Assembly (NCBI GenBank): GCA_000004985.1
Contig: GG738893.1
DNA: 64,000 nucleotides
Strand: one strand, 5' to 3'
Source of the DNA: Naegleria gruberi
Lineage: Eukaryota
The notes under the pieces are model-generated. The model searched no databases, had not been told where the DNA came from, and worked only from the letters and a program-made list of their open reading frames with translations. How positions within the stretch are numbered: position 1 is the stretch's first letter; the number at the start of each line of letters is the position of its first letter. Positions 1-62,536 of this stretch are shown piece after piece. The translations under genes were made by a program, and so were the position numbers.

Positions 1-1190
1 ACAACCAAGATAATGTTCATATTTCCTGCATCGATAGCTGTATACTTATTCACCTTAATTACCTGCTCAAGAATTGAAATGCTATTGGTAGCAGCGGAGA
101 AGAGTGAGATGGCTCCCAACAACATGAAATAGGATGGCATTCTTATTAAGGTCTTTAGACCAAACATGAGAGTTTGTGGAGGATACACATCCTTACTTTC
201 TTCTACTTTCTTTTCAGCGGTCGATTCTTCTTCTGACAACATTGGCTCAGTAAGTGAAGATGGCGAATCCTCCTTTTCAGTTGGTGCATAAAGAGGTGGA
301 GTTGGTGGTTTTTCCTTGAAGAATAACAGTCCCAATAACCCAACTATTGTTACAAAAATTGCTTGGGATATGAAAAAGATTGAAGTTCCCAATACGGAGA
401 ACCTTAAATCTTCTGAACTTTCACTGCCAATGGTCATTACTCGAGTGCTGATGGTTATTCCGACAATGCTTCCAATGGCACCAGCTGCAATAATAACGGA
501 CATGATGAATGTTCTTTCATTATTACCAAACCAGAGCATGCCCAATAGGTCAGTAGTATGATTAAGGAAAGGTAAACCAATTAACATGACAACATGTCCA
601 ATGAATGAAATCCAATATGATGATTCAGTTCCCTATTTGATTCGTATTAAATTAAGAGAATTGATGCGGAAACTTACCTGAATTCCCATTAATTTAATCC
701 AAGAACCCACTGAGGTGAGAATTGAAAAAACCACAATCGAAGTTCTCAATCCAAAATTCTTAATAACAAAGGAAACAACCAGAGATAATGGAATGGCAAA
801 CGGTCTTGTCAGCAAACTACTCACATTAATCTTCCAATTCTGATTGCTGCCAAGATGATAATATTTCATCATGAGTGTTCTGCATTAAGGCAATTAAGAG
901 AATATATATATTAAGGATCATGCAAATATTGAGGAAACTTACCCTGCTGATGAGAATGTTGCGGTACAAGTAGGTCCAACAATCATCAAGAGAGCAAACA
1001 ATAATAATTGGAACCATCTTCTGATATACAATTTTGGTGTCTGCTGCTCTTTTGTTAGTTCCTCTTCTTCTTGTGGTACAATATTTGACCCATCAGAAAT
1101 ACTGTCCACCGTACATGCTGATAATGATTGAATGTTATTGATCGAGTTGGAGTTGGAGTTGGGCATCTCCTGAATATCTTCTTGTTGCAT
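1..1190 (-). CDS. Major facilitator superfamily transporter (FLVCR/MFSD7-like), partial; the 3' end runs off the window start
   Basis: Minus-strand exons at 1190..943, 879..678 and 632..<1, joined by GTAAGT...CAG and GTAAGT...TAG introns. The translation 'RRWFQLLLFALLMIVGP...' is hydrophobic multi-TM with a typical MFS N-terminal layout. The frame stays open to position 1. Confidence 0.6.
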
Positions 1191-1426: not shown

Positions 1427-3937
1427 TTATAATTTGGAAACTCTTGATCCAGTCTTCCAATTGACTGGTAAGAATGCAGAGACACATTCTGGATTTTTGA
1501 GAGAGCTGATTTCTGATGGTTGGACTGGATCTTGATTGGTCAATTTCTTGACAAACTTTTCCATCTTTTTGCCATTCACATTTACTGGAACACCATTCAC
1601 TTGGGCAATGACAGATGGACGATGTCTAGATGATAAATGAGTCTTGATAGTGTCATGAATCTTATCAACAAGTTGTTCGTTCAATTCCAAGTTTGGAGCT
1701 AATTGAACAAAGAGAACGACTTGCTCGTTACCATCCTTTTGTCTTTGACCTACGACAATTGAATCAACCACTTCCTTAACATGTTGCAAGACATCATAGT
1801 AATCACCAGTTCCAATTCTGACTCCTCCTGGATTAAGGGTACTATCACTTCTTCCCTTCACATAGAATCCAAAACGAGGAGTTTGTTCACTCAAATCTCC
1901 TTGAGCCCAAATTCCATCAAATGTTGTAAAGTAACTTTCAAAGTAACGTTTCTGATTCTTTTCTCCCCAGAAAAAGAGTGGATAGGATGGGAATGGATTC
2001 AGACAAACCAATTCACCATTATCTCCAAAGATACGTTCTCCAGCATCATTCCAAACTTGAACATCGAGACCTAGACCTGCACATTGCAATTCACCTGGAT
2101 AGACTGGTAAGAATGGAGAACCCAATGCAAAACAACCATTCAAATCGGTACCACCACTGATAGAGCTCAAGTGAACATGTGGAATCATGTACTTGTAGAG
2201 GTAGACTGCAGTGGATGGAGCCAATGGTGAACCAGTGGTTGTAATTAAACGAAGATGAGAAATATCCAATTTTGTCTTGTGAACCAAATCAATCTTGTTA
2301 GTAACCATGAAAGATAAATATCTTGAACTAGTTCCAAAGAAGGTAATCTTTTCAGTTTCAATTAATTTCCACATGGCCAAAGCATTAGGGAAGAGAGGAC
2401 TTCCATCATATAGCACATTCTTACAACCAGTATATAACATTGAGACACACCAATTCCACATCATCCATCCACAATTAGTATATACAAATGAAGTATCAGA
2501 ATCCTTAACATCGCAATGCAAATGAGTTTCCTTAATATGATTAATCAATACACCAAATCCTTGACAAATACATTTTGGAGCTCCTGTACTTCCACTTGTG
2601 TACATGATCCAAACTGGATGATCCACATCCACAGGTTCAAATTGAATATCCTTTTCATTACAGAGAGTTGGTGATAAATTTCTCAAAAATCCACCATTCA
2701 CAACATCACTATGATAATCGACATATTTGATACGAGAATGTTGAGTGAGCTTATTCACACAATCTTCATTGGACATGATTTCCTTAAGACAGGTATTTCT
2801 AGAGAATTGAGGGAAGAACTTTTCATCGTATTCGAGAGTTTTGACCTTGATAACAGCACGAAGAGTTGGAACATGGTGCATGAGGTATTTACAAGTTTCA
2901 TTGGTGGAGAATAACTTGCCATTGAATGTGTAATATTCAGTTGTAAAGAGGACAACTGGTTCAATATGTTGAAATCTTGCAAAAACAATCTTCTTTCCCA
3001 AATCTGGACTTACACTACTCCAGACAGCTCCAATACTAGTCACAGCCAATAAGGCAACAATGGATTCAGAGCAATTTGACATGATTGATACAACACGATC
3101 CATCTTTTTAACCCCCAGCTCATTTCTCAAGTAGTGAGCCATCTTGGCCACCCGATTCCACAATTCTCCATAGGTCATTTCCACTCTCGGAACCGTAACA
3201 CCCTTAATACCATTCTCACCAATGGCCAAGAGTGCAACTCTATTCACATATTGAGGATCCAAGCATTTGTGAAGTAAATTTTGAGCATAATTGACCTTAG
3301 CTCCCACAAAGAAACGACTTCCCATATGAGGATGAGTTGTAGTCAAACTTGCAAGCATTTCCTCTTCAGTTTGCTTTTTTCTTTCCTCATCAGAAATCTT
3401 CTTTGGTCTTGAAATTACTTGAGAATAGTTTTTAAAGGATTTAATCTTTAAGAATTGCCACAATAAACCCCAGAAACGATCATCCTTAACAGTCCACTCA
3501 AAGAACTTTTGATGATATTTAACTGGATCATCTTGCATCTCCATTTTAGTAAATTCATATGAACAATTGCCTTGCTTATTCAATTCCTCTCTGGCAAACA
3601 ATGAAAAGGCAAACATGACACTCTTCTCCATTGAATCAGCAGAAGGTTTCCAAAGCATTTTGTTCAAATCGACATTGTGAATCTCAGAGTCATTATCAGA
3701 GGGATGAGGTTGAAAGTGTTGAGAAGAAGAACAAGCAACAGCAACAGATGAAGAAGAGGAGGATGGTTGCTGATGAAAATGTCGGTGCTGGAGATGAATT
3801 TGTTGTTGGTGTTGATGGTGATGATGAGCGTGGTGAAGATGAGACATGTTGAATGTTTTTCTGTTGAAAATTTCGCGAATTTTTGGAACATTCAAGCAAT
3901 AACAATTGAACGTTCTGTTACCGCCTTTTCCACACAT
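1427..3937 (-). CDS. Acetoacetyl-CoA synthetase-like acyl-CoA synthetase (AMP-binding family) with a His/Gln-rich N-terminal extension
   Basis: Single 836-aa ORF. It has the AMP-binding motif 'YTSGSTGAPKCI' and the AACS-like blocks 'MLWKPS...', 'IGAVWSSVSPDLG' and 'GGVRIGTGDYYDV'. The true start Met may lie internal to the His-rich leader. Confidence 0.85.
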   Translation of the reverse strand: MCGKGGNRTFNCYCLNVPKIREIFNRKTFNMSHLHHAHHHHQHQQQIHLQHRHFHQQPSSSSSSVAVACSSSQHFQPHPSDNDSEIHNVDLNKMLWKPSADSMEKSVMFAFSLFAREELNKQGNCSYEFTKMEMQDDPVKYHQKFFEWTVKDDRFWGLLWQFLKIKSFKNYSQVISRPKKISDEERKKQTEEEMLASLTTTHPHMGSRFFVGAKVNYAQNLLHKCLDPQYVNRVALLAIGENGIKGVTVPRVEMTYGELWNRVAKMAHYLRNELGVKKMDRVVSIMSNCSESIVALLAVTSIGAVWSSVSPDLGKKIVFARFQHIEPVVLFTTEYYTFNGKLFSTNETCKYLMHHVPTLRAVIKVKTLEYDEKFFPQFSRNTCLKEIMSNEDCVNKLTQHSRIKYVDYHSDVVNGGFLRNLSPTLCNEKDIQFEPVDVDHPVWIMYTSGSTGAPKCICQGFGVLINHIKETHLHCDVKDSDTSFVYTNCGWMMWNWCVSMLYTGCKNVLYDGSPLFPNALAMWKLIETEKITFFGTSSRYLSFMVTNKIDLVHKTKLDISHLRLITTTGSPLAPSTAVYLYKYMIPHVHLSSISGGTDLNGCFALGSPFLPVYPGELQCAGLGLDVQVWNDAGERIFGDNGELVCLNPFPSYPLFFWGEKNQKRYFESYFTTFDGIWAQGDLSEQTPRFGFYVKGRSDSTLNPGGVRIGTGDYYDVLQHVKEVVDSIVVGQRQKDGNEQVVLFVQLAPNLELNEQLVDKIHDTIKTHLSSRHRPSVIAQVNGVPVNVNGKKMEKFVKKLTNQDPVQPSEISSLKNPECVSAFLPVNWKTGSRVSKL

Positions 3938-13888: not shown

Positions 13889-15445
13889 ATGAAGTTGACA
13901 TCTGCCATTGTCATGGCCATTTTGATGGCTGTGCTTTACGCTACATATGTTACCGCTTCCACAGATTCATTCGATGCATTGACAGATGCCATGGTCGAAG
14001 CAATCTATGCCAGAAGATTACCTAGATCTGGTGGAGGTGCCAGAGGTGGCTCAAGAGGAGGTGCCAGAGGAGGTGCTCGTGGAGGATCAAGAGGTGCTAG
14101 AGGAGGAGCCAGAGGTGGATCTCGTGGTGGTGCCAGAGGTGGTGCTAGAGGAGGTTCTCGTGGTGCCAGAGGTGGATCTAGAGGTGGTGCCAGAGGTGGT
14201 GCTAGAGGAGGAGCCAGAGGAGGATCAAGAGGTGGAAAAGCTGGTAAAGCTGGTAAAGGAGGTAGAGGTGGATCTAGAGGTGGTAAGGCCGGAAAGGGAG
14301 GAAAAGCTGGTAAAGGAGGAAAAGGAAAAGCTGGTAAGGGAGGAAAAGCTGGTAAAGGTGGAAAAGGAAAAGGTGGAAAAGCTGGTAAGGGAGGAAAAGG
14401 TAAAGGAAAAGGAGGTAAGGGTAAAGGTGGTAAAGGAAAAGGTGGAAAGGGAAAGAAGGATAAGAAGGGAAAGAAAGACAAGAAGGGAAAGAAGGATAAG
14501 AAAGATAAGAAGGGAAAGAAGGACAAGAAGGATAAGAATCAACAACAACAAGGTGGAGAACAAGGAGGTCAAGATGGTGGTCAACCAGGAGGTGAACAAC
14601 CACAACAACCAGAACAAGGAGGTGAACAACCACAACAACCTGAACAACCACAAGAACAACCACCAGTTGAACAACCACAACCTGAACAACCACAACAACC
14701 TGAACAAGCTCCAGTTGAACAACCACAACAACCTGAACAACAAGCTCAACCAGAACAAGCTCAACAACCTGAAGTTGCTCAACCACAAGCTCAAGAACAA
14801 CAACCACAAGCTCCAGTTGAACAAACTCAACAACCAGCTCAACAAGCTCCTGTTGAACAACAACCAATTGCTCAACAACCAGCTCAAGAACAAGCTCCAG
14901 TTGCTGCCCAACCTGTTCAAGAACAACCACAAGTTGCTCAACCTCAAGTTCAACAACCTGAAGTAGCTCAACAAGTTGCTCAAGAAGGTCCACAACCAAT
15001 TGCTCAACCTGATCAACCACAACCAGATCAACAAGTTGCTCAACAAAACCCAGACTTCCAACGTGCTCCACAATATGGTGACAAGCAAAGAATTGAATAC
15101 TTGAGAGGAATGATCAAGAAGAATATTTCCCCACAAGTTGCTCAACCAGAACAACAAGTTGCTCAACCTGAAGTAGCTCAACAAGAAGTTCCACAACCAA
15201 TTGCTCAACCTGATCAAGTTGCTCAACCAACTGAACAAACTCAACCAGCTAGAAGAACTAGAAAGTACAACAGAGGTGGTAACAGAAGAGGTACCAGAAG
15301 AAATCAATTCTCTCAAATTCCTGAATTTGGTAGATATTTCTTGGGTAATCAAGCTAAGGCTCAAAATGGTGATAACGATAGAATCAACTTTTTGAGAGGT
15401 TTGATTGATTTGCTCATTGCTCAAACTAAAGCTCAACAAAATTAA
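13889..15445 (+). CDS. Secreted low-complexity, charge-segregated repeat protein (RGG block, KGG block, KKD block, Q/P/E-rich block)
   Basis: 518-aa ORF starting with a hydrophobic signal peptide 'MKLTSAIVMAILMAVLYATYVTAS'. It then has about 15 'GG[AS]RGG' repeats, '(K[AG]GKGG)n', '(KKDKKG)n', a long 'QPEQPQQPEQ / VAQP(E/Q)' region, and two copies of a 'GD(K/N)xRI(E/N)(Y/F)LRG(M/L)I' motif. The ORFs overlapping it on both strands are repeat-shadow artefacts. Confidence 0.6.
   Translation: MKLTSAIVMAILMAVLYATYVTASTDSFDALTDAMVEAIYARRLPRSGGGARGGSRGGARGGARGGSRGARGGARGGSRGGARGGARGGSRGARGGSRGGARGGARGGARGGSRGGKAGKAGKGGRGGSRGGKAGKGGKAGKGGKGKAGKGGKAGKGGKGKGGKAGKGGKGKGKGGKGKGGKGKGGKGKKDKKGKKDKKGKKDKKDKKGKKDKKDKNQQQQGGEQGGQDGGQPGGEQPQQPEQGGEQPQQPEQPQEQPPVEQPQPEQPQQPEQAPVEQPQQPEQQAQPEQAQQPEVAQPQAQEQQPQAPVEQTQQPAQQAPVEQQPIAQQPAQEQAPVAAQPVQEQPQVAQPQVQQPEVAQQVAQEGPQPIAQPDQPQPDQQVAQQNPDFQRAPQYGDKQRIEYLRGMIKKNISPQVAQPEQQVAQPEVAQQEVPQPIAQPDQVAQPTEQTQPARRTRKYNRGGNRRGTRRNQFSQIPEFGRYFLGNQAKAQNGDNDRINFLRGLIDLLIAQTKAQQN
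14030..15250. repeat. Coding tandem repeats (about 24-27-nt RGG/KGG units, then 15-21-nt CAA/CCA-rich units) within gene 13889-15445
   Basis: Visible periodicity such as 'ggtgccagaggtggatctcgtggt...' and 'aagggaaagaaggataagaag'. Open reading frames appear in 5 of 6 frames across the region. Confidence 0.8.
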
Positions 15446-15813: not shown

Positions 15814-15886
15814 CTCCCCCTGGTGGGCTCGAACCACCGACCTGCAGATTAACAGTCTGACGCTCTACCGACTGAGCTAAGGGGGA
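15814..15886 (-). tRNA. tRNA-Asn (anticodon GUU)
   Basis: The reverse complement gives 'TCCCCCTTAGCTCAGTCGGTAGAGCGTCAGACTGTTAATCTGCAGGTCGGTGGTTCGAGCCCACCAGGGGGAG'. It has a 7-bp acceptor stem, D-arm 'GCTC AGTCGGTA GAGC', anticodon loop 'CTGTTAA' (GTT), T-arm 'GGTGG TTCGAGC CCACC' and discriminator G. Confidence 0.9.
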
Positions 15887-19022: not shown

Positions 19023-20884
19023 TTATGCAAAGAAATATTCCAATTTCACACTATTCTTTCCATTTACACAATTCAATTGAGAATGATCAATGAATGGTCT
19101 AGTCAACACTTGACCATTCAATACTACTTTAAGAATTTTTGGAGAATCTGGCTTAAAGTTATAAGATTCAATAGACAAGAAACAACCATTCTCTCTCTCC
19201 ACCTGAATACTCTCAAACAATGGAGATCCAACAAAATATTCACTAGAACCAGCTCTTGGATACAAACCAAGTGCTGACCACACAAACCATGCACTCATCG
19301 TTCCATAATCGTTATTTCCAGGCAAACCATCTGGATTCACACTGTATAATCTATCCATCATTTGTCTCACATAGTATTGAGTCAAATCTGCTCTGTCCAC
19401 ATAGTTAAACAAGTACATGCTCATTAGATCATGTTCATTTCCTCCCCAATAGAATGGATTTGGCAATACGGTGAATGGAAAGTCGAAGGAATCTTTTGCG
19501 AATTGTTCCAGTGCAGCAGTGAACTTTTCCTTTGATCCAAACAGGGAAATTAATCGTGGAATATCGTGTGGAACAAAGAATCTATAATGCCAGGCATCAC
19601 CTTCGACATTATAGATTATCGACTGTCCCATCCATCGGCAAATGTTAATTCTGGACAATTCCACTTTCCAGAAATTGATTTTGGACAGAAGAATTGTTCC
19701 TTCTCGTGCCACACATTCTTATAGAATTGAGAACGAGCAGTAAAGTTCAAATAGTCTGCAGTTTCGTTAAGGACCTTAGCAACGGAGGCAATGCATGAAT
19801 CTTCGTAGGAATAATCTAGAGTGAGAACTGCTCCAACTTGGGCAGATTCTTCTGGGACAAAACCAAGAGAATTATATTGAGCTGGATTGACTCTTCCAAC
19901 ATAATTGACTGGTTCATTAGATGTCTTTTTCATTGCTTGATACGTCTTTTGCATATTAATCTTTGAACTTCTCAATTGACCTTTTAGGAATGCTTCTGTA
20001 ATGATAACAATTGCATGATTTCCAACCATTGAACCAGTTTCTCCATTACAGAAAGGCCACTTTGGAAGGAAACCAACTTGATCATTGACTCTTATCAATG
20101 GTATGTGAAATATCCAAAATGATAAAAGATTCTTTCGATTGATCGTTGAAAGTATATCTGTGAATTCCAGAATAATAGCCACTGGTCAATTCTTCATCAA
20201 TGTCATATCTTTCCAAAGTAGTTCTGAAATAACCTGGTTGAACAAATTGAGTTTCCTTATTATAGGCCCTTACTTTTTTGTCTTTCAACAAGAAATCATA
20301 ACTCAATTCTCCCTTATATAGACAAACTGGCATTATTCCAATATTTCCCATATCTGGAATTCCTGCACCTACCAAACGCATATGTGAATGTAATCATCTG
20401 GATAGTAGAAACCACCTGGATGCTCAAAAGAAATCTCCAAATCGAAAGTATTAGTAGTATCAGGTCCAACTCTAATCATTCCATAAGGAGTTTGAGCCAT
20501 TGGACTCATGGTTCCAGAACCAAAGCCCTTGCCAGTTCCAATGAATGGATTCACGTATTTCATATTCTTGTTGCTGTCCTTCTTGAATTTTCTTCCACTC
20601 TTTCCGTTATGTTGTTGTTGAGTTTGTCCAAGATTGTCTGGATGGCCATGGACACGATTTTCCATATCTTGATGATCATCATGATGCATAATATTAATTG
20701 ATGGTTGCTTCATCATTTGTTGATGTGAATAAAACCTCATATTTTGTCTTGGTTGTTGCTGTTGATGATTCATCATTTGTATCATTCTTGATTCTACCAA
20801 CGTGATGATAACAATCAAAATGATCAATAGCATCTGCAGAAGAACATTCGTACGAATCGAACCATCTCTCATCTTCCTATTCAT
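19023..20884 (-). CDS. Glycoside hydrolase family 92 (alpha-1,2-mannosidase-like), type II membrane topology. Exon 1 is 20884..20416, then a 47-nt intron 20415..20369. Downstream frame breaks are unresolved.
   Basis: Blocks present: 'VNPFIGTGKG', 'FEHPG|AGIPDMGNIGIMPV' (restored across a GT...AG intron), 'GIHRYTFNDQSKESFIILDISH', 'NDQVGFLPKWPFCNGETGSMVGNHA', 'LGFVPEE...TLDYSYEDSCIA', 'RSQFYKN', 'NVEGDAWHYRFFVPHD', 'GNEHDLMSMYLF' and 'GLPGNNDYGTMSAWFVWSALGLYP'. Four overlapping ORFs in different frames. Two junctions (near 20085-20100 and 19625-19645) have no room for an intron. Confidence 0.7.
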
Positions 20885-21320
20885 CTCAATTTTTTCGCTT
20901 AATATCTTCTTTCAATATTAGTGATGTTAGTGTTATCAAACGGGAAGATAAATTGTGAAGGTTCATCATTGGAACAGTTAGCTACTTGGATTTTAGGAGC
21001 AATTACTGCATTTTGGTGTTACTTGAAAGTGGACTGTTGGGAGATTTGGAATTTTATTGGTGTGGTTATTATTTGTTGATATTATTTGTAAAGAATTTCA
21101 GGTCAGAGTAAACTTTGTTGATTAGCTCTATACCCAAAGAATTTCAAGTAATACATGTTTATTTTTCAAAACTAGAGGAAAATTGCAAACGATTCATGTA
21201 TAAAAATGTACAGTAGCTCCAAAGTTGATTAAGATTAAAACAAAAGCTGCAGAAGGTGGGATTTGAAGTTTGAATTTTAAAATATAAAAATATATGAAAA
21301 CAATACAATATTGATGAATA

Positions 21321-21492
21321 ACCTCACGGTGTTTGATGAACAGTCATTTAAAGTTTAAATTTTAGAATTAAAATAATGAAAATAACATCAAATTATCAAT
21401 AGCCAAGGAGTAACCCCATGGTGTTTGATGAACAGTGACTAAAAATTTGAATTTTAGAATAATTTTATCAACAACCATAGAGTAATCCCACG
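21321..21492. repeat. Tandem repeat, about 2.1 copies of an 80-90-bp unit beginning 'AACC(T/C)CA(C/T)GGTGTTTGATGAACAGT'
   Basis: Copy A spans roughly 21321-21411, copy B roughly 21412-21483, and a partial third copy starts 'aatcccacg'. About 80% identity by eye. Confidence 0.7.
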
Positions 21493-21539
21493 ATCTATTA
21501 CCATATATAGATAAAACCTTAATAAAAAAACAATAAAAT

Positions 21540-21609
21540 GGATTTGAACCCACGAAGCTTGCGCAGTAGAACTTGAGTCTACCCCCTTTGACCACTCGGG
21601 AACCCCTGC
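21540..21609 (-). pseudogene. tRNA-Leu(CAA)-like element. The 5' two-thirds of a class II tRNA are intact; the 3' T-stem and acceptor strand are missing.
   Basis: The reverse complement gives 'GCAGGGG TT CCC GAGTGGTCAAA GGG G GTAGA CTCAAGT TCTAC TGCGCAAGCTTCGT GGG TTCAAAT CC...' followed by 'ATTTTATT' instead of the complementary T-stem and acceptor. The anticodon is CAA. Confidence 0.55.
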
Positions 21610-21718
21610 TTCACATAAACAAAACCTTAATACGAGCAATTCTTTTAGATTTAGTGTAACCTAATTTATCGACAGATTGGTAAAAGATAGATATTTGTAA
21701 AGTTGTTTGGTTTTTTAT

Positions 21719-23725
21719 TTAAAATACAAAGGATTCAGTTCTAATGTTATTTTCTGGATATTTGAGTTCTTTAAGCCAATTTCGAATAGAATTCATAAAT
21801 TGAGGAGGTCCACAAAGATAAATTATTGGAATTTCTGAATTGCTGATATTGGAAGCACCTTGTAGAGCTTGTGCAACATCATTAGAATTAATTCTTCTAT
21901 TGAAAATTGAATAATTATTCTCTGCATGTGTAGCATGTCTGGTGGAATCAAAAACTTGTAAACTTGAAACTCTTTCATCATTTCTGAAAGATTTGGTAAA
22001 TTCGGCTTCACTTCCTCTTCCAGAATAGAGAACAGATAACTTGACATTAGATTTACATTCCTGTAAGGCAGACCACATGGAAAGGAATGGAGTTATTCCA
22101 ACTCCGGCAGCTATCCAAATCATATTTGGAGTTTCCACTCGATTGGTTTCCTTTTCAAAACATGTGAAATTTCCACCAACTCCAATCAATTTCAAACTCA
22201 ATTCAGAAACATTGGAATGTAGCAATGGAGTGACAGCTCCATTTTCCACTAATTTGATAGTGCATGAAATAAAATTGGAAGATTCAAATTTGGTGGTTTC
22301 AGTTGTTTCGTCAATTAAGGGAGATGAAGAAATGGTCCAAGTTCTAATGAGATCATCATTGAGTGATTTTGGATTTAAATTATTCATATGTTGATACTTT
22401 TTTTGAATAATTTCACTAAAATCAAATAATGCATAAGATCCTGGCTGATACTTGATTGGAAATTCCAATTTAAATGTAAACTTGGAAATGAGGGGAGTTA
22501 ATTTTTCAACAGACCAAAGTTTAGCTTGATTGGAAGGAATGTGTTGCTCATTTTCAACATGAGTCGATTGATATACTTCTCCTTTCACATGACGAATTGG
22601 TGGATTGTAAGGAGAATATTGATCTGAACCTTCTTGTTTCAAATTCAATCCTTGTTTTACAAATACATGACCTGTCACTCTAATTCTTGTAATCAAAGTG
22701 ACTCGTGGCATGATTTCTTCAGCTTGTTCATCGAATAGATTCTCTGCATCACCAGTAATGTACAACATGTCACCAGTCTGGAAGTTTGGAATTACTAGAC
22801 CAGCAACTCTATCAGATTGTACATTTCCTAAAGATTGATAGAATCTATTACCTGAATAATCTGGTATTACAACATAGGATTGGCCATTTTCATTGTAAAC
22901 TCGGCAAAATCCTGGATTTCCTCCTCTGTGGTTGACTCCAATATCTGAATCTGAATCTTGAGAGATGTGTCGTGTGGAAATGAAGATTGTACTTGCTTGG
23001 TGGATGTGGAATGTTTCTTCTGGTTCTAAAGTAGTGGAATTTGGAGAATCAATTGCAAGTTGAGGAGTTCTTTCCACATACGAAAGCTTTCGAATAGTGA
23101 TATATTTTGGACAGTTTCCCAAGCTTTCATTTGTTTGAATGTCCAAGTTGATGAACTGATTCTTGTACTGGCTAGAATTAATCAATCCACTAACCTTATT
23201 TCTTCTCCTATTACTAAAATCAATACCAAGACCAGCAAAGTATCTAATAGAATTATCCAATTCTCCAAAACAATTGCCAAATGGATCTCCAACTGACAAT
23301 TTTGCCCTAATCGACATTCTACTTCCCTTCTTAATCTTTACAATATCCTCTTCTTCTGCATTTCCAACAATAATACTTGTCCATGGCCTTTGAAATTCAT
23401 CCAATGTGGCCACAACAAAATAACTCAATTGGGAAAAGAATACTTGATGTTGCAAAGGCATTTCGTCTTCAATAAAATCTGGTAATTGACTAGAAACTTG
23501 AAGAGGAACTTGTCTTTTCATTTGGACGAATAATTCGCCCTTGTGTTGTGTGTGATTTTTCAATATCATGTTAAATTGCTGTTGTGTTGTTGTTTTGTTT
23601 TTTTTTGTTTGTTTTGTGAAATTAATAGATTGGAATTTCAATCTTTTGATTGGTTGGAATTTCAAAAATAGAAAAAACGAGGGAAAATAGTGCGTCCTGT
23701 GTGAGAGGTCTTTTTTGTTGGTCAA
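21719..23725 (-). CDS. FAD/NAD(P)-binding oxidoreductase (ferredoxin-NADP reductase-type C-terminal domain) with an N-terminal FMN-binding split-barrel-like domain
   Basis: 668-aa ORF. The C-terminal half has 'RTWTISSSP' (RxYS-type FAD motif), 'IAAGVGITPF' (GGxGxxP-like) and 'LYSGRGSEAEF...IIYLCGPP'. The N-terminal part 'FVVATLDEFQRPWTSIIVG' resembles a PNPOx-like split barrel. Confidence 0.7.
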   Translation of the reverse strand: MTNKKDLSHRTHYFPSFFLFLKFQPIKRLKFQSINFTKQTKKNKTTTQQQFNMILKNHTQHKGELFVQMKRQVPLQVSSQLPDFIEDEMPLQHQVFFSQLSYFVVATLDEFQRPWTSIIVGNAEEEDIVKIKKGSRMSIRAKLSVGDPFGNCFGELDNSIRYFAGLGIDFSNRRRNKVSGLINSSQYKNQFINLDIQTNESLGNCPKYITIRKLSYVERTPQLAIDSPNSTTLEPEETFHIHQASTIFISTRHISQDSDSDIGVNHRGGNPGFCRVYNENGQSYVVIPDYSGNRFYQSLGNVQSDRVAGLVIPNFQTGDMLYITGDAENLFDEQAEEIMPRVTLITRIRVTGHVFVKQGLNLKQEGSDQYSPYNPPIRHVKGEVYQSTHVENEQHIPSNQAKLWSVEKLTPLISKFTFKLEFPIKYQPGSYALFDFSEIIQKKYQHMNNLNPKSLNDDLIRTWTISSSPLIDETTETTKFESSNFISCTIKLVENGAVTPLLHSNVSELSLKLIGVGGNFTCFEKETNRVETPNMIWIAAGVGITPFLSMWSALQECKSNVKLSVLYSGRGSEAEFTKSFRNDERVSSLQVFDSTRHATHAENNYSIFNRRINSNDVAQALQGASNISNSEIPIIYLCGPPQFMNSIRNWLKELKYPENNIRTESFVF

Positions 23726-34987: not shown

Positions 34988-37939
34988 TTACTCTTCTTCA
35001 CTGCTAGCTTCAGAATCACAATCATGGTCAGTATTGTCGGTTCCTTCGTTTTCGATCATTGACTGGTCGACACAAGCTCTGCAGTGACCACAACCACCAC
35101 AAATTGGAAGATATGGATTCCTCCTTCCTCTTCCACCATAACTTTCATAGGTATCAACATAGGAACCACTGGCAGCAAGGTCTGAAAGCTCTGAAGTTTG
35201 GTTGGCTTGATCTTCAAGCAATCGTTGTTCCAGTTGGAAAAGCTTCTCCAAGAATTGATTAAAATTGTCTGGGAATGAATGGGAAACTGATTCCATAAAC
35301 TTGTGAATTGCTCTCACACAGGTAAAGAATTTTCTCTCAAACAAATTAAAAGGGTCATCGTTCGCGCTGGTCATTGTCGATATTTCATTAGAGGAGAGCA
35401 GATACATATTCTTTTCTCCAGTCTTGATACATTTAAAAAAGTTTTCCACATCACAATATGGAACTAGCTCATTTCCCTGTTGAAAGAGAATGAGTAGTTT
35501 ACCTGGAAAGCAAGATAATTTGTTGTAGACATCAAAGTGGTGAGTGATGCAATTCTTAACTTCCTTTAAATTGTAATACCTTTCATCTCCAACCTTACAA
35601 ACTATTGTTGTTTTAGGGCGAGCATTCTGTTGTTTGGTACTCATAATCTTCTTATTCTTTGGATATGGCATTCGATAATATTTTTCCACTCCAAAGTTGT
35701 ATTTGGTAAACTCGAATCTAATGGTTTCATCCTCAGGTCTTACAATACCTTGTTCAGCTCCCTGAGAAGAAATATACGATAGGACATTCTCAGGTAAATT
35801 TCCTAAAACTACCTTGAGAACATCAAAACAAGGTGATTCCAAGCAAAGTCCACTCACTGTTGGAAAATTTGAAACAAAATGGATAGCACAAGTACTTCCC
35901 AGAAATCCCTTTCCATACACTACCACTTGAGACATTGGTATTTTGAGTCGTGTCGTGAATAAATGATGAACCAACTTGTAGTCAGTCTCTAGAAATCTAT
36001 GCAAGGAAGTTCTTTCATCCTCACCTTTGGCGCACGTGCTATATCCAAAACCTCTATATTCGAAAATAAATATCTGCAAACCCATCGAAATAATAAAATC
36101 TTTGAACTTCCTTAGTGAAGGTTGGAAGAAATACTCAAAAGCTTCCTCACATCCGTCATGGAATAATAGTAAGGTCTTTTTGGAGGTTGTAGAACTGGAA
36201 TCATCTTGTTTTGTGGAGGTACTTGGCTGCTCGTTTTGGCCAACCATCTCAAAATAACATGAAAGAGTAGCTCCATCCTCACAAACAATATCCACTGTTG
36301 GCACATTTGGAACTGAATTTGATTGAGTCTCGGTTTTTCGTCTACGCCATTTGAATTCCTTTACAAACTTTTCATCGAAAAGAAATGGGTTTTGCTCCTC
36401 CTTCTTTGGAGAGGAAGTTCCAACTGTGGAAACAGCAGGGCTTTCTTCTATCAGTTGAGGTAGGACATATGGATTTGTCAAAAATTCCCTTGGCCCAAGA
36501 ACTTCATAATTAAAAGCCTTACAGAAAATTGGTTGTTCCAATATTTTACAATATCGTTTGAAAACTTGATTCTTAAAAACTTGTAAATCATTGAATAAAA
36601 GATCATTTTCAAAAGGAGCTTGTTCTTTTTGTTGTCCTTTTTTCGTAGAGTTACTAGAGGTAGGATGTTGATCGCCAGAAGTTGATAGACTTGTCATGAA
36701 CGTCATCTTTTTCAAGTAAGTTTTGTTTCTTGTTTTTACAGTAGTTTCCACATTTTTAATTCCAGTTTCTTGTCGTTTCTTCTTTGGTTTCTTCTTTTCA
36801 TCCTCAACATTAGCAAACAAATCCATTGAAACTTTTCCTGACAAGAGAGCAGATGGTGTTAATGTCTGCATTGGAGTATTTTTAAAGACAGTATTTTGAG
36901 TGAGAACCTTTTCCTTTTCATTATTATTATCAGTGAATGCGTTAATATCTACAGGTTTCACTGAATTTTTCTTTTTTTGAGCTAATTTCCTCGAAATGAT
37001 ATTATCCATAGAAGGTTCCTCTTCCTGTCTCGACTTTGGGAATATATCCATTATTGCTCTTGTATTATTTCCATTATTATTATTATGAATTTGTTGCTGC
37101 TGCTGATGATTATGATTAATATTTGAGGCTCCAACAGCAAGATTATTCAAATTTCCTCCACTCGTATTATTCGAAGAAAGATCCACTGATGGAGTAGATT
37201 CCACACTCTTCACCGATAACCCATCAAGATCCAACTCTTGATGATTTATACAATTTGTTCCAGCTGGAACATTACCACCATTCATATTGCCACTACCTCC
37301 ATTACTTCTCGAACCTGATACACCATGTTGATTATTTTTTTCAGAAAGTTGTAAATGATTTTGGCGGGAAAGATTTGGCGTCAAGTTTGATAAAAGTCTC
37401 TTAAAAAAAGAAGCAGCACCACCCTGTGTAGGAGAATGAATCGTAGTATTTGCTGTTGTATTGATGTTGTTCATGGTGTTGGTGAAGGTTGGTGAAGGAA
37501 GTGGTGAGGATGATACTAATAATGGTTGGTGTTGTTGGTTTTGATCGTGCGATGATGAAACATGTTGTTCATCATCACCGCTAGCAATGAAATGATTGTT
37601 GGTTGATGAAAATTCGATATTTTGTGATTGTGATGGTGGAACATGTTGGTGATGATTGTTGTGACTTGGTGATAAATCATTGTTTAGAAAGGGTTTAGGA
37701 TTGTGTTTAATTGGAGAGGTAGATGCATCATTTGGTTGTTGCATATTTTCTAATGTATTCGAATAATTGTTTAAATTATTGGAATGTGCAATAGTATCGG
37801 TTGGACTATTATTTGGATTGTTATTATGCTGTTCCGAAGAAATCATGTTGTATGTTTGGGTGGACAGCAATTGTTGGCAGAGTCGCTTATCATGGATTTT
37901 TTTTGATTTATGACAGAAAAAGCATTTAACGTTGGGCAT
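34988..37939 (-). CDS. Large low-complexity protein with a C-terminal alpha/beta-hydrolase-like domain (ABHD/FAM108-like, nucleophile motif altered) and a terminal Cys cluster
   Basis: 983-aa ORF. The N-terminal half is N/Q/S-rich. The domain reads 'LLLFHDGCEEAFEYF...FIFEYRGFGYS...VVVYGKGFLGSTCAIHF'. The C-terminal cluster is 'CGGCGHCRACVD'. Confidence 0.55.
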   Translation of the reverse strand: MPNVKCFFCHKSKKIHDKRLCQQLLSTQTYNMISSEQHNNNPNNSPTDTIAHSNNLNNYSNTLENMQQPNDASTSPIKHNPKPFLNNDLSPSHNNHHQHVPPSQSQNIEFSSTNNHFIASGDDEQHVSSSHDQNQQHQPLLVSSSPLPSPTFTNTMNNINTTANTTIHSPTQGGAASFFKRLLSNLTPNLSRQNHLQLSEKNNQHGVSGSRSNGGSGNMNGGNVPAGTNCINHQELDLDGLSVKSVESTPSVDLSSNNTSGGNLNNLAVGASNINHNHQQQQQIHNNNNGNNTRAIMDIFPKSRQEEEPSMDNIISRKLAQKKKNSVKPVDINAFTDNNNEKEKVLTQNTVFKNTPMQTLTPSALLSGKVSMDLFANVEDEKKKPKKKRQETGIKNVETTVKTRNKTYLKKMTFMTSLSTSGDQHPTSSNSTKKGQQKEQAPFENDLLFNDLQVFKNQVFKRYCKILEQPIFCKAFNYEVLGPREFLTNPYVLPQLIEESPAVSTVGTSSPKKEEQNPFLFDEKFVKEFKWRRRKTETQSNSVPNVPTVDIVCEDGATLSCYFEMVGQNEQPSTSTKQDDSSSTTSKKTLLLFHDGCEEAFEYFFQPSLRKFKDFIISMGLQIFIFEYRGFGYSTCAKGEDERTSLHRFLETDYKLVHHLFTTRLKIPMSQVVVYGKGFLGSTCAIHFVSNFPTVSGLCLESPCFDVLKVVLGNLPENVLSYISSQGAEQGIVRPEDETIRFEFTKYNFGVEKYYRMPYPKNKKIMSTKQQNARPKTTIVCKVGDERYYNLKEVKNCITHHFDVYNKLSCFPGKLLILFQQGNELVPYCDVENFFKCIKTGEKNMYLLSSNEISTMTSANDDPFNLFERKFFTCVRAIHKFMESVSHSFPDNFNQFLEKLFQLEQRLLEDQANQTSELSDLAASGSYVDTYESYGGRGRRNPYLPICGGCGHCRACVDQSMIENEGTDNTDHDCDSEASSEEE

Positions 37940-49365: not shown

Positions 49366-51308
49366 ATGTGGCTCCACAAACTGACATTCCTTCTTGCCAT
49401 TTCCCTTCTCGCAATCACATGCTTAACTTTAATTAACGGACAAGAGCTCACAGTCCAAACTTTACAAGGAAAAGTTAAAGGTTACATGGCAAATTCCAAC
49501 ACAAAAGCTTTCTTAGGTATTCGTTATGCCGAAACTACGGGTGGTAACAATAGATTTAGACCTCCTGTTGAGTTGGCCGATACTTCATCTAGCACAGTTA
49601 CAAATGCAACCACTTATGGAAATATTTGCATTCAACAAAGTGGTGAAAATGTGTATAGTCAACCAGCAAGTGAAGATTGTTTATTCTTGAATATTTGGAC
49701 TCCAGCTGATGCATCTGCAACTAATCAATATCCAGTCATGTTTTGGATTCATGGTGGTAATTTTATTTACGGTTCTGGAAATATCTATGCTGGAGATTAT
49801 TGGGTCAAGTTGAGTCAGGATAATAATGTTCCAGTTGTTGTGGTTACCATTAATTATAGATTGGGTGTGTTTGGATTTATGACTGATTCATTGTTTGGTT
49901 CTGAAAATGGCAGAACTAATACTAATTTCGGTTTGTTGGATCAATTGACTGCATTGAAATGGGTCAGAAAGAATATTGCAAATTTTGGTGGTAATCCAAA
50001 TAAGATTACCATATCAGGAGAATCAGCTGGTGCTGTTTCAAGTGTTATTATGCTTACTAGTCCTCTCCTTTACAACACATCAAGTTCTTATTATACTGAT
50101 ATTAAGGTAAGTTTGTGAAATTGTCAACAAATTGAATTCGAATTGTTTACAAAATATTTTTTTAGGGAGCTATCGTTCAAAGTGGTACTTCTCTCAGGTG
50201 GAATATGCAAATTCAACAAAGTACTGCCCAAGGATTTGGCTCCAATTTGAAAACATTCTTTGGATGCACCACAGCAGCATGTTTGAGAGGATTGAGTGCC
50301 GATTCTTTGAATATCTATCAACAATACAATACCTCTGACAAATTTTCACCAACAGTTGACAATTATGTTGTCTTGAGGGATATTTTCGATTCGTACGATA
50401 GTGGACTCTATAAGAAGGTCAATCTCTTGATTGGTGTCACAAGAAATGAAATGAACGGTTTCACATGTGGAATTCTATCAAATTCCATTTCAGACACTCA
50501 AATGAAAGGTGTTTTTACTGGCTATTTTGGACTTTCCAAGATGCAACAATTCTATCCTCAACTTGCAAATTATTACACACAGGCCAATTATGCCAATAAT
50601 TTGGCTTACTTGAATGATATCTTGAGTAATTCAAATGTTCAATGTAATACTAGATATTTGGCAGCAACTGTTTCACAACAAGTTTACAATACCTATATGT
50701 ATACTTATGATCATTTCTTTTCATACACTCCTGCTTGTCAGAAGAGTGCCCATGCTATTGAGCTACCATTGCAATTCCCATATCTTTTTGGAATTAGAGG
50801 AGCTGTCAAGGTTTACACAATGAATAGTGATGAAGCTGAGCTCTCCAGACAATTGATTGTTTATTGGTCAAACTTTGTTTCTTCAGGAAGTCCAAATAAG
50901 AATGCAAAGAATTTAGTCAACTTGAATAATCAAACCTACTGGGAACGTTACACAACCTGCAATGATACTCAAATTATTCTTCAAACAGGAGGAAATGTCT
51001 TGAATAATACCATGTATTCGAAAGTTTGCCCATTCTGGAATCCATTCGATGAGGTTCCAACTATTACTTGTAATACCACAAATCCAGGACCTTCTCCACC
51101 AACTCCAGAATCCTCTACACAACCAACTCCTCAAACATCATCAAGCAGTCCATCTAAAAACACAACCAATCCAACAACTTCTGGAAAAACAGTTAATGGA
51201 ACTGTTTCTAATAAGGTCAATGAGGGAATTTCATCACATTCATTCTCTGCTAGTTTATTATTGGCTTGTGTAATGTTCTTCCTATTGTCCTTCATTCAAA
51301 TAAACTAA
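49366..51308 (+). CDS. Carboxylesterase type B / cholinesterase-like serine hydrolase, secreted, probably GPI-anchored; join(49366..50106,50166..51308)
   Basis: It has a signal peptide 'MWLHKLTFLLAISLLAITCLTLING', 'EDCLFLNIWTP', the catalytic 'GESAG' in 'ITISGESAGAVSS', and '|GAIVQSGT' after a 59-nt GTAAGT...TTTAG intron. The C-terminal tail is S/T/P-rich with a hydrophobic end 'LLLACVMFFLLSFIQIN'. Confidence 0.85.
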
Positions 51309-51460
51309 GTTGAGCTTTTAATTGTGCTTGTAGTTTTTCCTCTCCATATTTGGGTAGGAAACATTTTCCTCTCTTAATTTGGAGAGGAAACAGAAAATAT
51401 TTAAAATACAAGATTGAAAGCAAAGTCCAACAATTCAAACAGAAAAAAATCAAATCAAAC

Positions 51461-53106
51461 ATGTTTTCTCTCGAAACTCTTTTCGAAATATCACTTTATG
51501 GTTTTATTTTCCTTGCAGTCATTGCAGGACTCATGATTTACAACAATGTCTCCAAAGTTAAACATTTGAAAGGTGTCTGGCAGGTTGCCACTCTTCCAAT
51601 CAAGATTCCATTACTCTCCACCTATGTTTACATGTCAGGTGAGAGAGAGCTATTGAAACATATTGAAGAGAAGGGTGATAAAGAAGCTGGCTATCTTAGA
51701 GTTTCAAGTATGTTCCTCAATGAGCTCTATATCACAAATAGAAACATGTTGAAGGAGTTGTACGTTACAAAGGCTCATAATTTTGAGAAACCAGACTATG
51801 CCTACTCATTGTTCAATATTTTCGGTGAGAATATCTTGTCAGCTCCAAATACAGATAGATGGAAGAAACATCACAATATATGTTATGCTGCATTTTCATC
51901 AAAGAATTTAGATTACATGTCCAAAGTTGCTACCAAAAGTGTGGATATGTTGACTGAACAAAAATGGGATCCTGAAATTACCAAAAATGGAAGTTTTGAT
52001 TTCAATGCTTTTGCTGATTTCACAGATATCACTGTTGATACTTTAGGAAAGGCAGGATTTGGTGTTTCATTCTCCATTTTCAATGAGGAAGGAACAAGTG
52101 AACAAGACATTCAAAAAGGAAGAAAATTGAGAGCTGCCACAGACACTGTCATTTCCTTCGCAACTATTATTAAGAGATTTTTCGAATCCACACCTCAATT
52201 GGAGAAGTTATTATTGAAAGTTACTGGAACACAAGAAGCCGTTGATTATTGTAGTGAAGCTCTTGATACACTCATCAAGCAAAGAAGTGAAATGTGCTTG
52301 CAAAAAAGAGCTAGAATGTTAACAGACGAAACTGATGACGATTCTGAAAGTTTGGGGGATTTACTTAAGCATGTTAGTTGAGGCAAATATCGAAACCAAA
52401 GAATTGACCGATACAGAACTCAAGTCTAATATTATGATCTTTTTGCTTGCTGGAACAGAGACCAGTTCCAATACCTTACAATACGTTGCCTATGAAATGG
52501 CAAAACATAGGGAAATCCAATTCAAGATGAGAGATGAAATTGACAGAGTTTTGAATGGAAGATCACCAACATTTGCCGATTATGAGAAATTCGAATATGT
52601 AAATGCTGTAATAATGGAAACTTTGAGATTGCACAATATTGTGAGAATTGTTTTCAAGCAAGCATGCAAGAGTAATGTAACTATTGGAGGGTTGAAGATT
52701 CCAAAGGGAACTTCTGTCATTCCAATGTTGATTGGTTCCCATTTGAGTGAAAAGAATTGGGAGAAACCAACCGAATTCAAACCAGAAAGATTCTTGTCAA
52801 AGGAAGATAAGGACAAACATCAAACCGATTTCACCTTCACTCCATTCAGCATGGGTAATAGAAAATGTGTAAGTTTTCAATTGATTTTTTCATTAATCTT
52901 ATCAATTATTCCATTAAATTTTCTATTCGAAACAGATTGGATACAAGTTTGCAAGTATTGAAATTTGCATGGTATTAGTCAGGCTCTTACAAAATTATGA
53001 ATTTGAATTGTTGAATAATGAAGCAATTGATCCAGTCTATGACAGCTATGGAATTACTCACAAACCTGAAAATCTCAAGCTTCGTGTCACTAAAAGACAT
53101 GACTAA
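51461..53106 (+). CDS. Cytochrome P450 monooxygenase, in three exon segments: 51461..~52357, ~52359..52868 and 52936..53106, with a +1 frame discontinuity at a G5 run (52354-52358)
   Basis: N-terminal membrane anchor 'MFSLETLFEISLYGFIFLAVIAGL'. The I-helix reads 'IMIFLLAGTETSS'. The heme-binding motif 'FSMGNRKC|IG' is split by a 67-nt GTAAGT...AACAG intron. ORFs 51350..52381 and 52335..52961 overlap in different frames. Dropping one G from 'ttgggggat' gives a continuous '...DDDSESLGIYLSMLVEANIE...'. Confidence 0.8.
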
Positions 53107-61123: not shown

Positions 61124-62536
61124 CTATTCCTCATCAGGTCCCAATTCTTCTTCAGCATTAAGTTCTTGGTAGCCCTCAACAAGACTTTCGAAATTTTCTG
61201 TCAATTCTGTTATCTCATCAAGTTCCATACCCTCAGAATGAAAATGATGTAACAATGATTTCATTGTTAATATTTCATTGGCTCCATGTTTGATGCGTTC
61301 GAGGGATGATTTTAGTCTAGTTGAATTGGATAACATGAATGCTGTAATGTGCATATTGAGTAAATTTGAATTACAAGAGTAGAGAGGTCTATGAAACACA
61401 GCCCCAACTTTAAGACCACTCGGATTCCAACTACAAAATTTAAGTGCCCTTTCGTCTTTCAATTTTCTTACTACCGTATTAATTGTTCGCGGTTCTACAT
61501 AACCTCTGTACAGTAGTGAACTGCACATGGTATAACCTTCAGAAGATTCAATAAAGGGACTGGCCAAGCAATCATATGTGAACATTTCTGTTCCATAGCC
61601 ATGTGGAACAGTTTTCATTGAGGAATGAATTGGCCCAAATGACGGATACAGAATGTTCATAACTGGATACGGAAAATTGTGTGTAAGATTTTGTAAATCC
61701 GTAGAAAGGGGTCCTTCAAATCTATTACAGGCTGTAACATTTGAAATAACCAAGGAAATGAGCTCATTCACACTATCCATTGATGAATAATGAAATTCTT
61801 TCTTGCACAAGTTCTCAATAGCTTTGTTTTCCATAAATATTTTTGCATCCCAACCATTAGTTGAATTTCCCATGTAGAGAAATGAATTCAAAGCCTCAAT
61901 TGGACCATTATCTCCTGCGTTTTCGAAGTCTGGGGAAATAGAAATAGCACATTTGTATGTCTTTGAATAAGATGTATAGATACTATCCATTAACAAGCTC
62001 ACAAAACCAGATCCTAATCCACCCCCAATTGAGCTAACTATCATGAAGGAAAATGGAGATTCACACTTTTCCACTAGGGACCTAATCCTTTCCATTGCAA
62101 TCTCCAATAATTTCTTTGAACGAGAAGAGTGTCTTCCATTTGCATAAGTATAAGAGGAAGAATCCAATACAGAGGAAGTTTCACTCACAAACAATGAATT
62201 ACTTTCCGAGCATTCACTTTCATGGTCTTGAATTAATTTCAATAAATTCTCTCCAGTTGAATCCGATAGTTCTGATATTGTCAAAATAGGTCTTTCCAAA
62301 TCAATAAACAATGTTCTAGGAACAAATTTTCCATCCTCCTTCTCTCTAAATACATTTAAATATTTCTCATCCTTATCTTGATCATTTTGATAATCCGAAT
62401 TAAATCGACGCCTCTTCTCTTCCTCTGTAAACTTATCAGGAAAAATACAATGCTCATGCTCTCTTAATAATTGTTCCCAAGCACTTAATCCAATTCTATT
62501 TCCAGCACCTCCAACCTGAATACAAATTACACTCAT
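61124..62536 (-). CDS. Divergent tubulin-superfamily protein (not canonical alpha, beta or gamma)
   Basis: 470-aa single ORF. The N-terminus 'MSVICIQVGGAGNRIGLSAWEQLLREHE' parallels 'REIITLQLGQCGNQIG...W..L..EHG'. 'FVPRTLFIDLERPILTI' parallels 'IPRAVLLDLEP'. The tubulin signature variant is 'SIGGGLGSGFVSLLMDSI' (GGGTGSG in canonical tubulins). It ends in an acidic C-terminal tail. Confidence 0.75.
   Translation of the reverse strand: MSVICIQVGGAGNRIGLSAWEQLLREHEHCIFPDKFTEEEKRRRFNSDYQNDQDKDEKYLNVFREKEDGKFVPRTLFIDLERPILTISELSDSTGENLLKLIQDHESECSESNSLFVSETSSVLDSSSYTYANGRHSSRSKKLLEIAMERIRSLVEKCESPFSFMIVSSIGGGLGSGFVSLLMDSIYTSYSKTYKCAISISPDFENAGDNGPIEALNSFLYMGNSTNGWDAKIFMENKAIENLCKKEFHYSSMDSVNELISLVISNVTACNRFEGPLSTDLQNLTHNFPYPVMNILYPSFGPIHSSMKTVPHGYGTEMFTYDCLASPFIESSEGYTMCSSLLYRGYVEPRTINTVVRKLKDERALKFCSWNPSGLKVGAVFHRPLYSCNSNLLNMHITAFMLSNSTRLKSSLERIKHGANEILTMKSLLHHFHSEGMELDEITELTENFESLVEGYQELNAEEELGPDEE

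Follow-up and report, generated by a model that had tools for sequence, protein, structure and literature searches.

A tRNA-Leu(CAA) gene of Naegleria gruberi probably inactivated by a 272-bp insertion in its T-loop

The locus and its genomic neighbourhood

We analysed a 64-kb stretch of Naegleria gruberi DNA (contig GG738893.1 of assembly GCA_000004985.1; hereafter the window), which has a GC content of about 35%. The locus of interest, a tRNA-Leu gene on the minus strand, is flanked by two protein-coding genes of the same strand, namely a pyridoxamine-oxidase/ferredoxin-reductase-like (FNR-like) fusion gene (21719-23569) and a GH92 alpha-mannosidase gene (19023-20884). That the latter is broken up into several ORFs points to spliceosomal introns. 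Together with an ORF (61124-62536, minus strand) that is 100% identical over 470 aa to N. gruberi alpha-tubulin, and with long ORFs in the window that carry eukaryotic domains (F-box, BTB, C2, PARP, RGS and protein kinase), this places the locus in the nuclear DNA of a heterolobosean amoeba.

Homology searches of the protein collection returned no Naegleria orthologue of either flanking gene, and exact look-ups of the FNR-like protein, the GH92 protein and the product of a 983-aa ORF (34988-37939) found none of the three on record. The best named relatives, at about 39-49%, belong to bdelloid rotifers for both flanking genes and also to chytrids, oomycetes and bacteria for the FNR-like gene, while JGI/ENA sequences reach up to about 53% identity to GH92. 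Judging by their relatives, both genes could have been acquired horizontally.

Two further features of the window are repetitive. An ORF of 518 aa (13889-15445, plus strand) without a Pfam domain consists almost entirely of nested low-complexity repeats, the units of which, read by eye from the TRF consensus, are of the GGA/AGA, AAAGG and CAACAACC types (RGG-, KG- and PQ-rich). At 51335-51392, two copies of a 29-nt unit with the palindrome TTTTCCTCTCCAAATTTGGAGAGGAAACA sit between, or over the ends of, a carboxylesterase-like ORF (50205-51308) and the next ORF (51350-52381).

A tRNA-Leu(CAA) gene in two pieces

The larger piece of the gene (21609-21540, minus strand; GCAGGGGTTCCCGAGTGGTCAAAGGGGGTAGACTCAAGTTCTACTGCGCAAGCTTCGTGGGTTCAAATCC) corresponds to nucleotides 1-70 of an 81-nt tRNA-Leu(CAA), as identified from the sequence, from Rfam and, after joining, from ARAGORN. 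It comprises the acceptor 5' strand, a 3-bp D-stem, the anticodon arm with anticodon CAA at 21575-21573 in the loop CTCAAGT, a 12-nt variable region, the 5' strand of the T-stem and a full T-loop. The initial annotation had described a class II tRNA-Leu in which the acceptor 5' strand, the D-arm, the anticodon arm and most of the variable and T-loop region are intact, and our analysis bears this out. As in the tRNA-related head of a SINE, with its internal Pol III promoter boxes, both an A-box region (in the D-arm) and an intact T-loop/B-box (GGTTCAAATCC) are present. Taken by itself, the 5' piece scores 22.1 bits against the Rfam tRNA model, which is below the gathering score (29); the lack of pairing in the 3' strands accounts for this.

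The rest of the gene lies 272 nt downstream in the tRNA sense. This 3' piece (21267-21248, minus strand; TTCAAATCCCACCTTCTGCA) contains T-loop sequence, the 3' strand of the T-stem (CCCAC), the acceptor 3' strand (CTTCTGC) and the discriminator A, and is followed by gcTTTTgTTTT. The acceptor strand CTTCTGC pairs with GCAGGGG of the 5' piece through five Watson-Crick pairs and two G-U pairs. When both strands of the 64-kb window were searched (128 kb of strand), 21267-21248 was the only site that completes the cloverleaf. The 3' T-stem and acceptor strand had been thought to be replaced by AT-rich sequence and the tRNA to be truncated; both strands in fact survive inside the element as it was then delimited, so that the 3' end is displaced rather than missing or replaced, and the gene is interrupted rather than truncated.

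At each junction stands one copy of the nonamer TTCAAATCC (exact repeat D6), at 21540-21548 on the 5' side and at 21259-21267 on the 3' side. These two are the only copies; they are identical, are spaced 281 nt apart and both carry T-loop sequence (canonical tRNA positions 54-62), together forming a putative target-site duplication. Removal in silico of the 272 nt and one repeat copy (281 nt in all) yields a product in which ARAGORN recognises an 81-nt tRNA-Leu(CAA) whose stems are all paired; 22 out of 22 cloverleaf pairs are kept. On the unedited locus ARAGORN calls no tRNA, even with its intron options, since these model introns of the anticodon loop only.

An error or an allele-specific state of the reference assembly could in principle produce such an arrangement. 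A contig from the metagenome of a closely related strain (ENA; L001) lacks the region: its positions 1-1668 align to window positions 23757-22415 and 20294-20090, at 97.6% and 93.7% identity, such that 22415 is joined directly to 20294 and 2.1 kb are absent, a stretch that takes in the entire tRNA-Leu locus together with the C-terminal portion of the FNR-like gene and the beginning of GH92. This gap is much larger than the insert, however, the last 108 nt of L001 do not align to the window, and the contig may be either chimeric or the product of a real strain deletion. We therefore set it aside as uninformative about the insert, the whole region having been skipped. The junctions in the reference, moreover, are clean and carry a precise 9-nt duplication, which is not something that assemblers create, and we regard an artefactual or allele-specific origin as very improbable.

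Intact relatives of the gene

One metagenome scan, with a pattern built from the D-arm and the anticodon loop, returned four contigs. Two of these, the AT-rich contigs L003 and L004, carry tRNA clusters with an intact tRNA-Leu(CAA) of 81 and 83 nt, respectively (ARAGORN; 1964-2044, minus strand, and 1058-1140, plus strand). In the D-arm and the anticodon arm both are identical to the joined N. gruberi product, and all three have the variable region TGC....GCTTC in common. One T-loop base differs from the joined product in both, and in L003 one T-stem base as well; the divergence falls mostly in the acceptor stem and in four variable-loop bases. Within the acceptor stem, six of the seven pairs vary from sequence to sequence with both strands changed, and sliding the 3' partners by one to three columns reduces pairing from 97.7% to 33-57%, figures that rest on four sequences and do not amount to statistical proof of selection.

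At the level of sequence, this comparison shows the tRNA-Leu design with a short variable arm to be real and the 5' piece to have its specific partner in the displaced 3' piece. Because the design is common to L003 and L004, none of the 22 pairs is lost and the acceptor stem shows covariation, the two pieces are, by this comparison, undecayed parts of one gene. The suggestion that the locus is a decayed tRNA gene is therefore probably right about the outcome, a non-functional gene, and wrong about the mechanism, as the pieces are pristine and appear to have been split by an insertion with a target-site duplication. Intact pieces would also be expected under selection on a functional, spliced gene, a reading to which we return below.

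The contigs returned by the scan have features of their own. L003 and L004 have GC contents of 27% and 35%, and ORFs near their tRNAs gave marginal Pox_A22/resolvase (22.3 bits, cut-off 22) and GIY-YIG matches and a strong papain protease match; they may derive from giant viruses or AT-rich protists. The other two, L002 and L005 (Ga0247836_1059474 and Ga0247831_1050043; 42-43% GC), both carry the same degenerate tRNA-Leu(CAA)-like sequence, in which the B-box is broken (CCCAAAT), the anticodon stem is mismatched and the variable loop, GCGCAAGC, is similar. It is not called by ARAGORN and is a possible tRNA pseudogene or tRNA-derived repeat of another eukaryote.

The 272-bp insert

The DNA between the pieces (21268-21539) is 272 bp long and has a GC content of 23.5%, against about 33% locally. 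Read in the tRNA sense, it opens with a unique head of about 45 nt that begins ATTTTATTGTTTTTTTATTAAGG (ATTTTATTGTTTTTTTATTAAGGTTTTATCTATATATGGTAATAG in full), after which come about 2.6 degenerate tandem units of 85-92 nt: unit 1 (21405-21494), starting atcGTGGGATTACTC, unit 2 (21313-21404) and a partial unit 3 (21268-21312) that ends ...AAAATTCAAAC at the junction with the 3' piece, all on the minus strand. The 2.1 copies of an 80-90-bp repeat reported before are thus roughly right. A 53-nt repeat core recurs 92 nt further on with 85% identity, three copies of a 19-nt motif are spaced 85 and 92 nt apart, and blastn aligns the repeats of the insert to one another at 75% over 118 nt (E = 8e-15). 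TRF did not report a tandem array in the insert, which marks the array as irregular. Each unit holds an inverted repeat, TGGTTGTTGAT/ATCAAACACCA, which dominates the predicted fold.

Terminal inverted repeats were absent in all 10 junction registers of the insert, the lone sub-terminal inverted match being the 7-nt AT motif ATATATG. Read on the plus strand, the insert closes at its 3' end with A-rich sequence (...CCTTAATAAAAAAACAATAAAAT), 75% A in the last 20 nt, that adjoins one copy of the nonamer; this end is interrupted (AATAAAAAAACAATAAAAT) and is not a clean poly(A). The ORFs of the insert are short and spurious, with no transposase and no coding capacity, and at E<=10 Rfam gave no match for the insert, the locus returning just the sub-threshold tRNA and chance matches of the snoRNA type.

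Further copies of the insert were sought at several levels. We found no second copy in the 64-kb window (blastn), and viral contigs gave 0 matches to a pattern of the insert core and likewise 0 to a pattern of the tRNA body. A comparison of its spurious 56-aa ORF with protein representatives (called ORFs of public assemblies) gave two borderline chance matches and no real copy; one (L006) is an unrelated satellite without DNA similarity, and the other (P0134) was judged unrelated from the protein sequence alone.

The initial annotation had put forward a tRNA-derived SINE as one possibility, that is, a tRNA-like head joined to a body that bears repeats. The 5' part of the locus does keep its A-box and B-box regions and is followed by repeats unrelated to the tRNA. 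A SINE body, however, would not be followed by exactly the 3' end that its tRNA part lacks, and here the last 11-20 nt of the tRNA and its own Pol III terminator lie beyond the repeats, so that there is no head-body-tail layout. The direct repeats that would be expected to flank a whole element are likewise not where a SINE would have them; the sole exact repeat, of 9 nt, lies inside the tRNA and brackets the insert alone. Nor is there a poly-A or simple-repeat tail in the sense of the head, as the body ends at the tRNA 3' end (TTCAAATCCCACCTTCTGCA) and the terminator. With no other copies in the window, in viral contigs or among the protein representatives, we find a SINE scarcely credible.

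The repeat units also bear a resemblance to the T-arm into which they are set. Every unit closes with AAAATT(C/T)AAA(C/T), after which comes a T-loop-like heptamer (TTTTAGT, TTTAAAT or TTCAAAT), the unit ends (AAAATTCAAAC-like) resembling the T-loop TTCAAAT at the 3' junction, and the units start with T-stem-like CGTGGG, CATGGG or CGTGAG. In addition, an 18-nt motif upstream of the tRNA (21615-21632) recurs in the insert (21507-21524) with 16/18 identity. Such resemblance, seen in sequence comparison, would also fit local duplication or slippage over transposition: the insert might have arisen in place, by slippage or unequal exchange anchored on the T-loop TTCAAA, or as filler DNA from the repair of a double-strand break, in which case the gene would still be disrupted and no mobile element involved. 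That no other copy was found in the window, in viral contigs or among protein representatives agrees with such an origin. Against it, the T-arm similarity is short and of low complexity, and homology stops at the heptamer; a match as good as that of the 18-nt motif is seen in 5% of shuffles, a chance level at which we also rejected the motif as a promoter duplication or a target-site duplication around the 5' piece; and for the greater part of the unit neither the tRNA nor its flanks offer a source. The units have diverged by 15-25%, whereas the nonamers and the tRNA pieces are perfect, which is hard to square with evolution in place after the break. We consider an origin in situ rather unlikely on balance.

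Tests for an intron and Pol III signals

The restored cloverleaf invites another reading, in which the gene is functional and a 281-nt non-canonical intron of the T-loop is removed from the RNA, or in which a split gene is joined in trans. Excision gives a flawless cloverleaf and neither piece is decayed, and introns of the T-arm exist in Cyanidioschyzon merolae and in archaea (PMC9602550, PMC3241643). Written in DNA letters, the mature molecule would join ...GGTTCAAATCC to CACCTTCTGCA; as RNA, it would join ...UUCAAAUCC to CACCUUCUGCA and have the acceptor stem GCAGGGG/CUUCUGC. A stretch of the insert, AGATCGTGGGATT, is complementary to AATCCCACCTTCT of the 3' piece at 11 of 13 positions (repeat I8).

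The 9-nt repeat allows ten intron positions, from 53/54 to 62/63, all of which we scored. The bulge-helix-bulge targeted by tRNA splicing endonucleases has a central helix of 4 bp, an outer helix and, on either strand, a bulge of 3 nt. It was absent in all 10 registers, none of which has a 4/4 central helix: the best reach 3/4, with 0-2/5 in the flanking helices, and where the T-stem serves as the outer helix the central helix has 2/4 and a flank 1/5. Nor did any of the 10 registers give GT-AG, AT-AC or group I boundaries (U before the 5' site and a terminal G), or fit a group II boundary (GUGYG...AY), and Rfam at E<=10 gave no intron ribozyme family. Folding was not convincingly better than that of shuffled sequences, with z-scores of -1.76 for the insert and -2.2 for the whole precursor. 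No further interrupted tRNA came to light when the whole window was scanned with Rfam at a permissive threshold, and full-text searches of the literature found no report of T-loop tRNA introns, or of tRNA-targeting elements, in Naegleria.

Transcription poses a second obstacle. In the nucleus of a heterolobosean amoeba, tRNA genes should be transcribed by Pol III from internal A and B boxes, and runs of T terminate Pol III in other eukaryotes. The native terminator of the gene, TTTTgTTTT (21237-21245, minus strand), lies 3 nt past the discriminator base, and a normal tRNA-Asn(GTT) gene in the window (15814-15886, minus strand; Rfam 67.9 bits), which serves as the local reference, has TTTT five nt and TTTTT fourteen nt downstream. 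From other eukaryotes and these two local gene ends we infer that runs of four to seven T would terminate Pol III in Naegleria too. In the tRNA sense the insert has nine runs of four or more T, and the first two, TTTT (21538-21535) and TTTTTTT (21530-21524; both minus strand), which are predicted premature terminators, start just 2 and 10 nt past the 5' piece and its B-box. One Pol III transcript through the whole insert is accordingly unlikely, since each such run should stop the polymerase.

A spliced or trans-joined tRNA thus appears improbable to us. If it were true, this would be the first functional tRNA gene of a heterolobosean that is interrupted in the T-loop, with a new kind of tRNA intron; in the absence of a bulge-helix-bulge it would imply both an undescribed route of tRNA splicing and transcription that ignores T-runs.

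A gene probably killed by an insertion

The reading that we prefer is that a nuclear tRNA-Leu(CAA) gene of N. gruberi was interrupted in its T-loop by a 272-bp AT-rich insertion with a 9-bp target-site duplication, and we hold it probable that this event was recent and left a dead gene. A perfect 9-bp repeat at either junction, and a target precisely restored once the insert and one repeat copy are removed, are generic marks of a transposable-element insertion. On this account a staggered break would have opened the T-loop, its repair would have duplicated the 9 bp of TTCAAATCC, and AT-rich DNA would have been inserted. As the units differ by 15-25% while the nonamers are identical and the tRNA pieces pristine, the insert would be recent and pre-loaded with old repeats; it would have carried its diverged 85-92-nt units on arrival, and so have come from elsewhere. 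Against insertion by a mobile element stands the lack of a second copy in the window, in viral contigs and among the called ORFs of public assemblies.

Because its plus-strand 3' end is A-rich and terminal inverted repeats are absent, the insert is most likely a non-autonomous or retroposed element in antisense orientation to the tRNA. Retroposition by target-primed reverse transcription would best account for a 9-bp duplication combined with an A-rich end and a lack of inverted termini, and a non-autonomous DNA element without terminal inverted repeats is also possible.

As for the consequences, TFIIIC could presumably still bind the A and B boxes of the 5' piece, and Pol III would start normally. 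Termination in the T-runs would then leave an RNA of about 72-86 nt that ends in U-runs after ...GGUUCAAAUCCAUUUU and is without the 3' halves of the T and acceptor stems. Such a truncated RNA could not be charged, from which we infer that this copy is dead, the gene probably being multi-copy.

The finding is ordinary in kind and easy to misread. With its last 20 nt sitting 272 nt away, the gene is missed by tRNA finders (ARAGORN, Rfam) and looks to a reader like a truncated tRNA. Its value lies in being a clean example of an insertion that struck the B-box/T-loop and duplicated 9 bp, in a protist for which few descriptions of mobile elements exist. Should the insert prove to be multi-copy and specific for the T-loop, it would represent a small tRNA-targeting element in Naegleria.

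Comparison with known systems

Several known systems place foreign DNA in or beside tRNA genes. Integrase attachment sites of prokaryotes reportedly lie in the T-loop of tRNA genes (Williams, 2002, Nucleic Acids Res), and the duplicated segment in N. gruberi falls, like their crossover segment, in the T-loop region. Prokaryotic elements that integrate into tRNA genes are kilobases long, contain an integrase gene and carry a tRNA 3' end, so that the gene stays intact, whereas the N. gruberi gene is broken, its insert measures 272 bp and the host is a eukaryote. The T-arm introns of archaea, C. merolae and nucleomorphs likewise interrupt the T-loop, and their removal likewise restores the cloverleaf. 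Those introns are tens of nucleotides long with a bulge-helix-bulge at the junctions; the interruption described here, at 281 nt, is several times longer, has no bulge-helix-bulge and contains many Pol III terminators. In tRNA-derived SINEs, as here, a promoter-bearing tRNA-like segment adjoins unrelated repeat-bearing DNA, but at this locus the whole gene is present in two parts, with its own 3' end and terminator, and the duplication flanks the insert alone.

Among DNA transposons the nearest parallel is Dada, whose members target small-RNA genes, insert inside tRNA-Leu with short target-site duplications and have no terminal inverted repeats (Kojima and Jurka, 2013; PMC3706591); Dada is also known from a protist, Perkinsus (PMC3706591). 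Insertion in a tRNA-Leu, a short duplication derived from the gene, the lack of terminal inverted repeats and a short non-coding derivative are all seen in N. gruberi. Dada, however, makes duplications of 6-7 bp in the anticodon arm or the A-box at a CTGCG-type target, has sub-terminal inverted repeats and encodes a DDE transposase in autonomous copies (PMC3706591), whereas the N. gruberi repeat is 9 bp long and lies in the T-loop, there is no transposase, and the sub-terminal inverted repeat is just a 7-nt AT motif. Since duplication length, target site and sub-terminal repeats all mismatch, we rejected an assignment of the insert to Dada. Literature searches gave no report of Dada in Naegleria, and the genus is absent from PMC3706591.

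The remaining comparison is with insertions retroposed by non-LTR (LINE-mediated) machinery, such as SINEs, 5'-truncated copies and processed fragments. Unlike these, the N. gruberi insert has an interrupted tail, neither a source element nor another copy of it was found and its target is not an obvious T-rich nick site. Like them, it has a target-site duplication of 9 bp, which is within their variable range, no terminal inverted repeats, an A-rich 3' end by one copy of the duplication (on the plus strand) and a small, non-coding size.
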